A stretch of DNA of 41,441 bases from a virus. Lineage: Duplodnaviria; Heunggongvirae; Uroviricota; Caudoviricetes. The notes under the pieces were generated by a model. That model saw only the letters and a program-made list of their open reading frames with translations, did no database searches and was not told where the DNA came from. Both the position numbers and the translations under genes were made by a program. This document shows, piece after piece, positions 30,044 through 33,466 of the stretch (position 1 is the first letter of the stretch; each line of letters starts with the position of its first letter). Location of the stretch: IMG/VR virus record IMGVR_UViG_2541047739_000012. One strand, given 5' to 3'.

Positions 30044-30199
30044 TTACTCCTCAGGTTCGTAAGCTGTGAAGACAGCGACCTCCGTCTGGCCGGTTCGGAT
30101 TCGTACCTCGCAGAGGTCTTTCCTCGTTACCAGTGCCGTCACTATGACGGTTAAACAGATGACGATCAGGGCGATTAACATCGCCTTTTGCTGCTTCAT
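30044..30199 (-). CDS. hok: Hok/Gef-family type I toxin
   Basis: 51-aa frame MKQQKAMLIALIVICLTVIVTALVTRKDLCEVRIRTGQTEVAVFTAYEPEE; single TM plus the conserved RKDLCEV motif. Confidence 0.85.
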   Translation of the reverse strand: MKQQKAMLIALIVICLTVIVTALVTRKDLCEVRIRTGQTEVAVFTAYEPEE

Positions 30200-30256
30200 A
30201 GCCTGCTTCTCCTTGCCTTTCGGCACGTAAGAGGCTAACCTAGATTTGCCGTTCAT
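30044..30256 (-). CDS. mok: Mok-like leader frame (in-frame N-terminal extension of hok)
   Basis: 70-aa ORF from ATG 30254-30256 encompassing hok in frame, as for chromosomal mok/hok pairs. Confidence 0.55.
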   Translation of the reverse strand: MNGKSRLASYVPKGKEKQAMKQQKAMLIALIVICLTVIVTALVTRKDLCEVRIRTGQTEVAVFTAYEPEE

Positions 30257-30490
30257 AGATTGAGCCTCAGATTAATGTTAAGCGTCTTGCAGGACGCGTA
30301 ATGTTAACTGGGGCTTTTCTCTATCTGCCTTTTGGTGTTCATGCCTGAGACAGATAGCCTCAAGCACCCGCTGCAATTCTACTTAACTCTCCTTTTCCCG
30401 CAAACCGTTTTTATCCCCAGCGGCAAATCGAATACACCACCAGCGCCACAGCCATTGCGATTCCTGCCGTTGTAAATGCCTCAGGCCAGG

Positions 30491-31006
30491 TCATCGTAAA
30501 ACATCCTCCACGCTTATCAGTCCATTTCGTTTCAGGTAATCCATCGCCATCTCCGGTAATTTGCAGTCTGGATTAGCTTTTTTCAGTTGACTGACCAGTC
30601 GTTTAACCCACATTGTTAATTCGCCAACCTGATTACTGGATGCTAGTGGATTGTCGGCTTTACCCAGAATGACAGCACAGCAGGCCTCTTTGAGTACCCA
30701 ATCAACAGCATCTTTCCATGCTCCTGTTTCGACTGGTGGATTCTCACGCTTTACCTGTTCATAAAAGCGCACGGCTTTAACCAGTCCTTCTGATATCACA
30801 GGGACTGGCGGGGTAGTGAATAAGGCCTGAATCTCATAGCCCGGCCTGTCGTTGCACCCCTCTTTTGTCGGTACATATTTCCAGTCACCAACCCACATCT
30901 TCTCCTGAAAGTCCGTAACGCCTTTTTTCACGTAGCGATATCGCCATGCAACTGGTTTTGCCTGCCCTGCCGTTTCATGCCCTTCCTGATAATTAATCTC
31001 GCTCAT
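30491..31006 (-). CDS. hypothetical early protein
   Basis: 171-aa ORF (MSEINYQEG...), ATG overlaps the upstream stop (ATGA); no motif recognised. Confidence 0.55.
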   Translation of the reverse strand: MSEINYQEGHETAGQAKPVAWRYRYVKKGVTDFQEKMWVGDWKYVPTKEGCNDRPGYEIQALFTTPPVPVISEGLVKAVRFYEQVKRENPPVETGAWKDAVDWVLKEACCAVILGKADNPLASSNQVGELTMWVKRLVSQLKKANPDCKLPEMAMDYLKRNGLISVEDVLR

Positions 31007-31179
31007 TCATCGCCCCACTCATCACAATATGCTTCGACCGGAGTTTTTCCTGCTTCGTAGTCATCACGCCAGGCTTCAGCATCAGCAGCACTTCCACCAC
31101 GTAACTCTGCATAGTCCATTAACAGTTCATGCCATTCTTCAAAACTGACGTTGTATTTAGTTGAACCAAAATCAGCCAT
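31003..31179 (-). CDS. small acidic protein (58 aa), not in the ORF track
   Basis: ATG 31177-31179 to TGA 31003-31005, translating MADFGSTKYNVSFEEWHELLMDYAELRGGSAADAEAWRDDYEAGKTPVEAYCDEWGDE; overlaps both neighbours. Confidence 0.5.
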   Translation of the reverse strand: MADFGSTKYNVSFEEWHELLMDYAELRGGSAADAEAWRDDYEAGKTPVEAYCDEWGDE

Positions 31180-31354
31180 TTTGTTCTTCCTCTTCGTCTT
31201 TTATTTCGTGATATGAGTAATTGCAGTAGTTAAAGAAAATTTCTTTTGCTTCGTCATGAATTTCATCAGGTGTTGCGTCATCGTCCACTTCGAATACATC
31301 CTCAAAATCTCCACCAGCTATTCCCGTTTCAATAATTATTTTGAACTTTCGCAT
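31172..31354 (-). CDS. small acidic protein (60 aa)
   Basis: ATG 31352-31354 with SD AGGGTGG; sequence rich in Asp/Glu (DFEDVFEVDDDATPDEIHDEAKE...KDEEEEQNG). Confidence 0.5.
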   Translation of the reverse strand: MRKFKIIIETGIAGGDFEDVFEVDDDATPDEIHDEAKEIFFNYCNYSYHEIKDEEEEQNG

Positions 31355-31447
31355 TTCACTACCACCCTTTCGGGTGGCCTCCTGCTGTTCTGAGGGTGCA
31401 GAAATCCCTCCGGTTAAGGATTAAATTTTTAACAGTGCTAAATTTAA

Positions 31448-31804
31448 TTATTCAGTTCTGGATTTTGTCACCCTGCGTATCCGTGCTTTCGCATTACGCT
31501 CAATCTGAATTAGCTTTTCTATATTTTTTCGCCTTTCCTGTTCCTCCTGGCGCAATAGTTTTACATCATCTGCCAGTCTGGTTTCTCTTTTCGCCACAGA
31601 GAGCATCCAGTCAAATGGCTCCACAACTGCACCGCAGATTTTACAGCGGACCTGACGCTCTTTTTCGTCAACCCGGACAGAAGCGTGATGGCAGTATGGT
31701 CTTTCCGATGGCTCATAAAGAAAATTAACCTGATTACGTGGGTCATCCTCTTTTACCGGAAATAAAACAATATTACTTAACTCATCTTCTGGTTTTATTT
31801 CCAT
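31448..31804 (-). CDS. hypothetical protein with Cys/His zinc-ribbon-like motif
   Basis: ORF track 31448..31861 (GTG); ATG at 31802-31804 (MEIKPEDEL...) has a strong SD AAGGAGAGGAG; motif CHH...CKICG. Confidence 0.5.
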   Translation of the reverse strand: MEIKPEDELSNIVLFPVKEDDPRNQVNFLYEPSERPYCHHASVRVDEKERQVRCKICGAVVEPFDWMLSVAKRETRLADDVKLLRQEEQERRKNIEKLIQIERNAKARIRRVTKSRTE

Positions 31805-31861
31805 GCTCCTCTCCTTTGATGCGAATGCCAGCGGCAATTGAAGCCTGATAGCTAATTTCAC

Positions 31862-32284
31862 TTACAGTACCGCCTCCTGAAAATTACCCTGATAGAAAGC
31901 CAGTACACGCTGCATAGCTTCGCTCTTCCGGCACTCGCGACAGATTATATTCAGGCGCCTGTCGTAGCGGCGTATTTCTCCGTCTGGTAATGACCAGATA
32001 AGGTCCGGATCAACCGCAGATGGTTTCTTCGGCTTTGCCCTTGAGAGCTTTTTACGGGCATTTTGCCAGTCCTTACGCGCCTGTTCAGACGGGAATAACC
32101 CGTAACCAGAGTTGTATACATCGCCACTGGCAACCAGCTCTCTGGCCAGAACGCTCATCAGATATCTTGTTGCCCCAGTTTTAGTTTCCAGTTGTCGTAA
32201 CGTCTCGCGCCCACTCTGGCGTACGAGTTCAACAACCTGCCCTTTAATTTTTTCCCGCTCTTCTTGTGTAAAAACTTTTGCCAC
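31862..32284 (-). CDS. hypothetical early protein downstream of the replication gene
   Basis: 140-aa ORF with GTG start preceded by AGGAGGG; basic, with CRECRK near the C-terminus. Confidence 0.5.
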   Translation of the reverse strand: MAKVFTQEEREKIKGQVVELVRQSGRETLRQLETKTGATRYLMSVLARELVASGDVYNSGYGLFPSEQARKDWQNARKKLSRAKPKKPSAVDPDLIWSLPDGEIRRYDRRLNIICRECRKSEAMQRVLAFYQGNFQEAVL

Positions 32285-32324: not shown

Positions 32325-33395
32325 TTACCCCCTGAAGCCCGGCGGAATTTCGTTATCCGGTTCAGAAATATGATTCACACAACGCTGGTTGTTCGTGCCG
32401 CTTACCGGGAGCAACCAGGGGTTCTCAAAATTCCGGTCCGGTCCAAAAAACGTCGTCGCTCGCTGAACAAATTCCGTTCCCGTTTTCCCGGTAGCCGCCA
32501 AGTATCTTGCGTAACGCCTCACGCCATCCAGCATGGCCTCTGGTGGCACCCCCTCGCGTAATCTGGCCTTCCAGGCACTGAAAGCGGATTTCTTCGGGTT
32601 TGCTCCGGCACGCAACGGGTACTCCCGCCAGACCTGTTCGAACACATCCGGATAATCCACTCGTCCCACAGACTGCCCGGTGCTTTCCGGGACTACCCGA
32701 TCGGCTTCCCGCTGAATGGCGGAATCGGCTTCAGGCTGCTGCAGTTGGTGTGATTGCTCCGGCCTTGCGGTCATCACCTGCTGCACAGCGCCCGAATCGG
32801 CTTTCAGCGCATACGCTGAATCGGCTTCCGGTGTCGTGCCTGCTGGCTGACCAGGATTGACGGTCTGAACATCCCCTGCCTGGTTCGTGGCGTTTTTTAC
32901 GCCATGGACCATAGTGTTTTGATCTTCTTGATCTGTATCTTTATCTGTATCTTTATCTGTCGTGACTCGTCGTGACATGTGCGTGACATTTCGTGACGCG
33001 CCGTGACAATCGCCATTTTGTTCCCGCTTTCTTTCCCTCTCTCGCTGCGCCCTCTTGCGCTCTGCAGGAGATTTTGCGGTTTGCGAAATATTGCCGTTGT
33101 CCTCTTTAAGCACCTGGCGTTTTTCCCATCCAGTGATTAAATCACCATCAAGTACCCGCCCCTGCATCGTCTGCAAAATTGAATCAATTACCTCTTCTGT
33201 CACGTCGAGCGCACTTGCCAAATCTTCTGTCGTGACATCAATGTGACCTCGCGTGACATTTCGTGACGCGCTCACCAGGAGGTGGATATACACTGCCATC
33301 ACTGTTGCAATTGGCTGCCCTGACACCCTGGCAATTGTTCGCCACTTAGGGTCATTTGGCATGTCATGCCATAATCTGAGCCAGGCGTTAGCCAT
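32325..33395 (-). CDS. replication initiation protein (O-like) with origin iterons inside the gene
   Basis: ORF track 32325..33401; ATG at 33393-33395 (MANAWLRLWHDMPNDPKWRTIARVSG...) with SD AGAGGTGAG; contains two iteron clusters in its coding sequence; sits in the lambda O position after the CII-like gene. Confidence 0.6.
   Translation of the reverse strand: MANAWLRLWHDMPNDPKWRTIARVSGQPIATVMAVYIHLLVSASRNVTRGHIDVTTEDLASALDVTEEVIDSILQTMQGRVLDGDLITGWEKRQVLKEDNGNISQTAKSPAERKRAQRERERKREQNGDCHGASRNVTHMSRRVTTDKDTDKDTDQEDQNTMVHGVKNATNQAGDVQTVNPGQPAGTTPEADSAYALKADSGAVQQVMTARPEQSHQLQQPEADSAIQREADRVVPESTGQSVGRVDYPDVFEQVWREYPLRAGANPKKSAFSAWKARLREGVPPEAMLDGVRRYARYLAATGKTGTEFVQRATTFFGPDRNFENPWLLPVSGTNNQRCVNHISEPDNEIPPGFRG
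32921..33007. repeat. origin-like repeats: AT-rich tandem repeat plus five ~10-bp-spaced CGTGAC iterons
   Basis: atctgtatcttt repeated 2.5 times (32931-32960), then CGTGAC at 32961, 32971, 32982, 32992 and 33002 (spacing 10-11 bp). Confidence 0.65.
33229..33270. repeat. second iteron cluster (GTGAC repeats)
   Basis: CGTGAC/TGTGAC at 33231, 33243, 33252 and 33262; the 20-mer gcgtgacatttcgtgacgcg is repeated exactly from the first cluster (32981-33000 and 33251-33270). Confidence 0.65.
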
Positions 33396-33466
33396 ACTCA
33401 CCTCTTTTGATACCGAATCTTTTTACTCACAAATTGCCGGAAGTGATCCGGTATGAATATTGCGAG

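Follow-up and report, generated by a model that had tools for sequence, protein, structure and literature searches.

Two adjacent, strongly acidic small proteins in the nin region of an Escherichia coli lambdoid prophage as candidate decoys of nucleic-acid-binding proteins

Introduction

What do two tiny, overlapping and extremely acidic proteins do for the prophage that encodes them? The question is raised by IMG/VR record IMGVR_UViG_2541047739_000012, a tailed-phage (Caudoviricetes) sequence of 41,441 nucleotides (nt), which was analysed over its whole length and is called the window hereafter. On its minus strand, two consecutive open reading frames (ORFs), orf60 and orf58, encode products of 60 and 58 amino acids (aa), which the original prediction, made from the sequence alone, considered candidate DNA-mimic anti-defence factors. 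Our results revealed that both are genuine, conserved genes, and a DNA-mimic or anti-defence function is a plausible candidate role for them, a reasonable guess. We favour, tentatively and at rather less than an even chance, the reading that they are stoichiometric decoy or inhibitor proteins, whose acidic surfaces would bind to a protein of the host or of a competitor, at the basic surface with which it contacts nucleic acids.

Results

Two genuine genes under strong purifying selection

Both ORFs were found in the window as they had been described, and the overlaps claimed with each other and with the next gene could be read directly from the sequence:

31172..31354, minus strand: orf60, a 60-aa DUF7167 (PF23768) / PHROG 1997 protein
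31003..31179, minus strand: orf58, a 58-aa protein corresponding to the C-terminal part of PHROG 519
31172-31179, minus strand: 8-nt overlap of the orf60 stop with the orf58 start, ATGGCTGA
31003-31006, minus strand: 4-nt overlap, ATGA, of the orf58 stop with the start of the next gene, orf171

Shine-Dalgarno-like purine runs lie upstream of each ORF, and the 8-nt overlap (ATGGCTGA) has the features of a translational-coupling junction. The composition, predicted as 25-30% Asp/Glu with aromatic residues interspersed, was close to the values measured. The orf60 product contains 19 Asp/Glu (31.7%) and 5 Lys/Arg, with a net charge of -14, an isoelectric point (pI) of 4.06 and 13% aromatic residues, and the orf58 product contains 16 Asp/Glu (27.6%) and 4 Lys/Arg, with a net charge of -12, a pI of 4.05 and 15.5% aromatic residues. 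Among the 222 ORFs of 50 aa or more that a six-frame translation of the window gives, which are non-coding for the most part (median Asp/Glu fraction 5.3%, 95th percentile 16.1%), the two neighbours rank first and second in acidity.

Natural variation pointed to strong constraint. The mean ratio of non-synonymous to synonymous polymorphism (pN/pS) was 0.08 for orf60 (36 natural DNA variants) and 0.04 for orf58 (31 variants), with pS up to 0.33 and non-synonymous divergence of only about 0.01-0.02. In RefSeq, orf60 is annotated as WP_001224672.1, 'DUF7167 family protein', and orf58 as WP_000753060.1, 'hypothetical protein'. A 561-bp segment spanning the pair is present in 2333 of 5426 complete E. 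coli genomes (43%), in up to 5 copies per genome. Low pN/pS, RefSeq annotation and this wide presence together establish that orf60 and orf58 are genuine genes under strong purifying selection. Lack of conservation had been named beforehand as a reason to abandon the original prediction; instead, low pN/pS, RefSeq annotation and homologues across phages and plasmids all indicated conservation. The same data bear on a reading of the ORFs as decaying or functionless fillers, in which the acidity would be incidental. No function is known for either protein and neither matched a characterised family, which fits such a reading. However, the pN/pS of 0.04-0.08 with pS up to 0.33, the 40-60% identity conserved across distant phage and plasmid lineages, and the confident folds and conserved acidic positions described below speak against it; the selection and conservation data effectively refute fillers, which we regard as very improbable.

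orf60 and the DUF7167 family

orf60 is a member of DUF7167, a catalogued family with no function attached. It scored 53.6 bits (E 2.4e-14) against the Pfam hidden Markov model PF23768, above the gathering cut-off of 24.4 and across the full domain (residues 2-53 on profile positions 1-60 of 60), and matched phrog_1997 at E 2e-30. When 1.84 billion representative proteins were scanned exhaustively with HMMER, 97 DUF7167 homologues appeared at E <=1e-3, mainly stand-alone proteins of 50-60 aa with 35-50% identity to orf60. The phages carrying them include lambdoid phages of E. coli and Klebsiella, Klebsiella Guernseyvirinae, Enterococcus Kochikohdavirus and a 151-kb Pseudomonas phage, and Foldseek additionally matched orf60 to uncharacterised proteins of about 57 aa from phAPEC8 and Lactococcus phage 949 (30-36% identity). 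The family spans phages of Gram-negative and Gram-positive hosts. With DUF7167/PHROG 1997 in general, orf60 shares a size of about 55 aa, the family-wide acidity and the pattern M-[RK]-K-h-x-V..ETG..G...E..FEV-x-DDAT-x-EEIE-x-A; the E. coli subgroup is set apart solely by being joined with the orf58 family in one cassette.

The AlphaFold2 (AF2) model of orf60, built from a 62-sequence alignment, reached a predicted local distance difference test score (pLDDT) of 89.9. The predicted fold is a beta-hairpin (strands 2-8 and 17-23) followed by a helix (29-43), ordered to about residue 50 and ending in a floppy acidic tail. DUF7167 also occurs as tandem duplications (P0232, P0243), suggesting that the working unit is a dimer, and in fusions to YopX and DUF7446. 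In Guernseyvirinae the DUF7167 gene overlaps a DUF2800/PD-(D/E)XK nuclease gene, and in two distant lineages DUF7167 adjoins DUF3850/ASCH genes. An inhibitor of RecBCD resembling Gam or gp5.9 was considered on account of DUF7167 genes beside 'exonuclease' genes in Klebsiella and Enterococcus phages. It was rejected as a general rule, because the Enterococcus gene is DUF3850/ASCH and the PD-(D/E)XK nuclease is a neighbour in Guernseyvirinae alone.

orf58 and its family in phages and plasmids

For orf58, no Pfam match at E up to 1 and no NCBIfam family were found; it belongs to a catalogued PHROG that has no Pfam entry. The match to phrog_519 (E 4.5e-23, 83 bits) covers profile positions 76-137 of 143, that is, the C-terminal 62 positions of a group of unknown function which includes orf183 of Kuttervirus CBA120 and DUF1187-fused forms. 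As fusion P0150 shows, the N-terminal part of the profile is DUF1187. Some PHROG 519 members bear this part, whereas orf58 lacks it and has a DUF7167 gene upstream instead. The AF2 model from 81 sequences (pLDDT 88.3) is a Trp-rich three-helix bundle with helices 13-27, 34-42 and 47-55. Two alignments gave the family motif F-x-E-W-H..L...A...GGSAADA-x-AWR-x-DY-x-x-GKTP..A..DEWG, in which F13, W16, L20, A24, W37, Y41, G44, P47, W55 and the GGSAADA and GKTP turns are near-invariant.

Homologues of orf58 were detected by tblastn in 202 phage records, the majority of about 150-160 kb and from Salmonella, Klebsiella and Escherichia phages. The four records checked, CBA120 (orf183), CRW-SP2, Sa157lw and Menlow, are all Ackermannviridae; their proteins are 52-59% identical to orf58 and are always encoded a few genes past the major capsid gene. 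Furthermore, homologues occur on 554 plasmids, 516 of these conjugative, with 412 of them 80-90% identical. In the single IncI2 plasmid inspected in detail, the mcr-1 plasmid NZ_CP067343.1, the homologue WP_000753050.1 is about 88% identical to orf58 and is preceded by a DUF1187 gene (plasmid locus 1578-1962 for the two), with the same 8-nt overlap as between orf60 and orf58. Upstream of the two is a CaiF/GrlA-family regulator, and downstream are SPFH, NfeD and type IV secretion system (T4SS) genes. A leading-region location on IncI2 plasmids was unsupported: the homologue is at the start of the T4SS operon and not beside the origin of transfer (oriT), and some 16 kb separate it from mobC and the relaxase gene. 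Large MOBH plasmids carry more distant copies within long arrays of small ORFs. The orf58 family is common to temperate phages, virulent Ackermannviridae and conjugative plasmids.

Conserved acidity and the search for known mimics

High acidity was found throughout both families. The median Asp/Glu content is 25% in the orf58 family (median net charge -9, 9 conserved acidic alignment columns) and 28% in DUF7167 (median net charge -11, 11 columns), and the acidic columns are kept even where Asp and Glu interchange and where homologues are just 35-60% identical. In the helical-wheel analysis, the acidic moment pointed 168-176 degrees away from the hydrophobic moment in all four predicted helices, and therefore the exposed helix faces are the ones conserved as acidic. 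Judged from these alignments, acidity appears to be a selected, family-wide property of both families. The conserved, surface-exposed high negative charge that characterises DNA mimics was thus found in both, according to secondary structure and helical wheels, and the Asp/Glu density is like that of T7 Ocr (29%) and gp5.9 (25%).

Searches of PDB by sequence and profile, using both proteins and both family alignments, gave nothing significant. Structure prediction had been proposed as a check, and a known non-mimic fold would have spoken against a mimic; the two AF2 models (pLDDT 89.9 and 88.3) showed no such fold and had no relative in PDB. The reading closest to the original prediction is that orf60 and orf58 are classical mimics of the Ocr/ArdA type, whose carboxylates at the surface would stand in for the backbone of B-DNA and inhibit type I restriction-modification enzymes. 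The 28-32% Asp/Glu resembles the 29% of Ocr, the acidic faces are conserved, and the orf58 family, like ArdA, is found on conjugative plasmids as well as in phages. Homology to Ocr or ArdA was nevertheless not detected: no Pfam hit appeared at E <=1 and hhalign against T7 Ocr gave a probability of at most 0.3%, ArdA being covered through Pfam and PDB only. Neither model has the elongated, usually dimeric fold on which Ocr and ArdA present a DNA-like carboxylate array. This Ocr-like, type I anti-restriction version is improbable, and much less likely than a decoy in the general sense. Sequence or structural similarity to a gp5.9-like RecBCD inhibitor was not found for either protein, and neither matched an anti-CRISPR (Acr) structure in PDB. 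The literature, searched by accession and by Pfam and PHROG identifiers, gave one earlier functional hint: the machine-learning predictor PaCRISPR flagged Kuttervirus phrog_519 proteins as anti-CRISPR candidates (PMC9409062).

A mobile cassette with mosaic edges

In IMG/VR, DUF7167 was directly upstream in 79 of 80 loci with a near-identical orf58, with the 8-nt overlap in 74 of the 79. At the locus of every more distant homologue found of either family, the other family was absent; the wider search for DUF7167 loci used a degenerate DNA pattern and recovered chiefly the E. coli subgroup. An obligate two-component system was rejected, since the linkage holds for the E. coli cassette (79/80) while the distant homologues found each occur without the other family. 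Because these occur apart, the two families are separable modules that have been joined in one cassette. Its two flanks are as follows:

30491..31006, minus strand: orf171 (PHROG 660; phrog_660 E 8e-73), the downstream gene
31355..31447, minus strand: spacer of about 93 nt upstream of orf60, moving with the cassette

Across the 80 loci tabulated, the gene after orf58 always starts with MSE(I/V)NYQEGHET, and this N-terminus moves with the cassette. Its C-termini vary, giving total lengths of 63-239 aa, most commonly 85, 171 and 119 aa and also 156. In the Shiga toxin (Stx) phage ArgO145 the slot of orf171 is taken by an Ead/Ea22-like protein (Pfam Ead_Ea22 match). The orf171-type gene looks like a recombination joint placed within a coding sequence. 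On the other side, a spacer of 91-96 nt was kept in most of the 80 loci though the upstream gene differs. In the window, AGGAGG (31378-31383) abuts a 7-bp hairpin with a GAAA tetraloop (31361-31378), with 6 nt between the end of the hairpin and the orf60 ATG; once formed, this hairpin would set a strong Shine-Dalgarno sequence at normal distance from the start codon. The spacer was also searched for a regulatory RNA, an own promoter or a terminator, but Rfam gave no match and no consensus site was seen on the coding strand; its overall fold is unexceptional (z = -1.5).

The cassette is found in different accessory slots. In ArgO145 and four Stx2a phages it is in the leftward early accessory region (pL, exo-xis type), among genes for Ea22-like, HNH, phosphoadenosine phosphosulfate (PAPS) reductase, methyltransferase and DUF1382 proteins. 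In other phages the cassette genes are in nin-like, variable accessory regions. The E. coli cassette is also present at about 11.3-13.2 kb of PP818812.1, deposited as Actinobacillus phage vB_Apl-pPE4, with about 91% DNA identity and 97% identity of the orf60 protein. Such closeness suggests that PP818812.1 is an E. coli prophage-derived sequence or has a mislabelled host.

The prophage and the position of the pair

The window is a nearly complete lambdoid prophage of E. coli. The region of it that was tested matched the chromosome of E. coli strain Ecol_881 at 100%, and the integration site adjoins a tRNA-Ser gene. The genes for RecE-type exonuclease VIII, a helix-turn-helix (HTH)/S24 repressor, dicB and ydfC assign it to the Rac/Qin type. 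The minus-strand order is cro-like, YdaT, O-like replisome organiser, DUF977/LygF, Zn-ribbon protein, orf60, orf58, orf171, hokD/sok, lipoprotein, DUF968, RusA, Q, four tRNAs and lysis genes. The neighbouring features were as follows:

32325-33401, minus strand: O-like replisome organiser (replication protein), upstream of the pair
31862-32284, minus strand: DUF977/LygF, basic (pI 9.8)
31448-31861, minus strand: Zn-ribbon protein, basic (pI 9.2), directly upstream of the cassette
30044-30369, minus strand: complete hok/sok type I toxin-antitoxin module, two genes downstream of the cassette
24950-25259, minus strand: four phage tRNA genes (Gly-TCC, Thr-TGT, Lys-TTT and one with a CAT anticodon), between Q and the lysis genes

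Two starts are conceivable for the Zn-ribbon gene. A GTG gives the longest ORF, of 137 aa, whereas RefSeq and PHROG 1621 favour a product of 118 aa that begins at an internal ATG (MEIKPEDEL...). The sok Rfam match (112 bits, E 4e-26) overlaps a 70-aa Hok-family ORF, hokD in RefSeq. The tRNA with the CAT anticodon was called Met by ARAGORN and Ile by RefSeq.

The original prediction had placed the pair in the early region. The gene order corrects this: orf60 and orf58 come after the replication genes and before Q, in the nin region of the rightward (pR) delayed-early operon, so that delayed-early expression is expected. Neither a sigma-70-like promoter nor an intrinsic terminator was detected on the coding strand flanking the pair. 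This position is relevant to the possibility that the genes are morons which benefit the lysogen, by superinfection exclusion or altered host physiology, and which are expressed from the prophage rather than lytically. The high frequency of the cassette in E. coli (43% of the complete genomes, some with as many as 5 copies), the conserved spacer of its own whatever the upstream gene, and the nearby hok/sok module would be in line with morons. However, the cassette points the same way as the pR operon, within which it is translationally coupled, it has no detected promoter or terminator of its own, and homologues exist in strictly virulent phages, where a lysogen benefit is impossible. We therefore consider morons improbable.

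The neighbours also bear on the main rival explanation, in which orf60 and orf58 are small acidic adaptors or chaperones that bind a basic protein of the element itself, acting in replication, recombination, transfer or transcription. In favour of it, the pair comes after the replication genes and the genes of two basic proteins, DUF977/LygF and the Zn-ribbon protein. Elsewhere DUF7167 keeps company with the nuclease gene of Guernseyvirinae and with DUF3850/ASCH in two distant lineages, and on the IncI2 plasmid the orf58 homologue, downstream of a CaiF/GrlA regulator, runs in the same direction as the T4SS transfer operon. However, none of the neighbours is constant: the upstream gene differs among otherwise near-identical cassettes, and distant homologues of each family are found in quite different contexts without each other. 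The orf58 domain, moreover, occurs in lambdoid phages, 155-kb virulent phages and plasmids which have no common replication or transfer machinery. An adaptor is possible but, all in all, rather unlikely.

Discussion

How could such proteins act? We suggest that orf60 and orf58 would be two independent lambdoid accessory genes, which were joined in E. coli as a translationally coupled cassette in a delayed-early operon. Each would encode a compact, stably folded polyanionic protein: orf60 a DUF7167 beta-beta-alpha domain, probably dimeric in action, and orf58 a Trp-cored three-helix bundle with acidic exposed helix faces. During lytic growth or establishment of the element, the conserved acidic surface may occupy the basic surface of, for example, a defence or DNA-metabolism factor, and the outcome might be counter-defence or host takeover. 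The protein binding, the nucleic-acid-binding nature of the partner and the counter-defence or host-takeover outcome are what we infer for the two proteins. Decoys were favoured because of the low pN/pS, the confident AF2 folds, the conserved exposed acidity and a charge density like that of Ocr and gp5.9. The accessory slots, the spread of the orf58 family from phages to plasmids, the DUF7167 duplications and the PaCRISPR flag added to the preference.

Several points weigh against decoys. High acidity is frequent among small phage proteins and hence is not diagnostic. The fold comparison found no relative of either model among solved structures, including the structurally known DNA-mimic and anti-defence proteins in PDB, and when the two family profiles were compared by hhalign with Ocr, gp5.9, gp5.5 and the lambda exo-xis ORFs, all probabilities stayed below 3%. 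No aca-type (anti-CRISPR-associated) HTH regulator is adjacent, the neighbours being Zn-ribbon and PHROG 660/Ea22-type proteins, both of which lack an HTH domain. Peptide motifs of the two proteins had no match in the supplements of two accessory-gene screens and of a plasmid leading-region survey. Delayed-early expression is a poor fit to the shielding of incoming DNA from type I restriction. The placement of the Ackermannviridae homologues after the major capsid gene, and of the IncI2 homologue at the start of the T4SS operon and not in the first-entering DNA, also argues against a decoy.

A bolder form of the decoy proposal can be formulated, in which the proteins would represent two new polyanionic decoy folds, each of which blocks a different bacterial immune or DNA-repair protein at the site where it binds nucleic acid. 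On this view, lambdoid phages, Ackermannviridae and IncI2 (mcr-1-type) and large MOBH plasmids would share the orf58 family as a means of counter-defence. We judge this extended form unlikely.

Small acidic accessory proteins are of a familiar kind. What is new here are the confident folds without a PDB relative, the family-wide exposed acidity, the separability of the genes and the range of orf58 from phages to plasmids. An immune-inhibiting activity of either protein would mean a new fold among anti-defence proteins, and one already very widespread, given that about 43% of the complete E. coli genomes contain the cassette and Stx2a-converting phages carry it too. In that case the orf58 family would also be relevant to the host range of virulent Ackermannviridae in phage therapy and to the spread of IncI2 plasmids with mcr-1. 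If they are not inhibitors, they would be two more well-conserved but uncharacterised small phage proteins, as is usual for genes of the nin and exo-xis regions. The cassette is a reasonable candidate for experimental screening.

Comparison with known systems

A similar arrangement of genes is that of phage lambda. Its exo-xis ORFs (orf60a/DUF1317, orf63/DUF1382, orf61 and ea8.5) and the small ORFs of its nin region are in the same type of slot and are likewise delayed-early, overlapping ORFs of about 60 aa, and in ArgO145 the cassette is in an actual exo-xis-type region beside Ea22-like and DUF1382 genes. However, the lambda exo-xis ORFs are not acidic (5-18% Asp/Glu) and are not homologous to orf60 or orf58. 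Lambda orf60a (31169-31351) and orf63 (31005-31196) have nearly the same sizes, overlap arrangement and even coordinates as the pair in the window. Homology to orf60a, orf63 or orf61 was rejected (hhalign at most 2.9%, no DUF1317 or DUF1382 Pfam hit), and the likeness is coincidental.

Small acidic anti-CRISPRs of the AcrIIA4 and AcrIF2 type resemble orf60 and orf58 in being small, acidic and borne by phages or plasmids. They differ in that the two proteins match no Acr structure in PDB and have no HTH aca gene next to them, the PaCRISPR link being a machine-learning one. With T7 Ocr (gp0.3) and ArdA, the pair has in common the very high Asp/Glu content and the presence on mobile elements; accessory status, in the sense of being non-essential, is known for these mimics and presumed for orf60 and orf58. 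In contrast, there is no kinship in sequence, profile or fold, the two proteins are half the size or less, and they are expected to be delayed-early whereas Ocr and ArdA are expressed from first-entering DNA. Of the same size class is T7 gp5.9, an acidic RecBCD inhibitor of 52 aa, to be compared with the 58-60 aa of our pair. T7 gene 5.9 overlaps the gene 6 exonuclease, as DUF7167 of Guernseyvirinae overlaps a nuclease gene, and both gp5.9 and the orf60/orf58 pair are encoded among genes of DNA metabolism.

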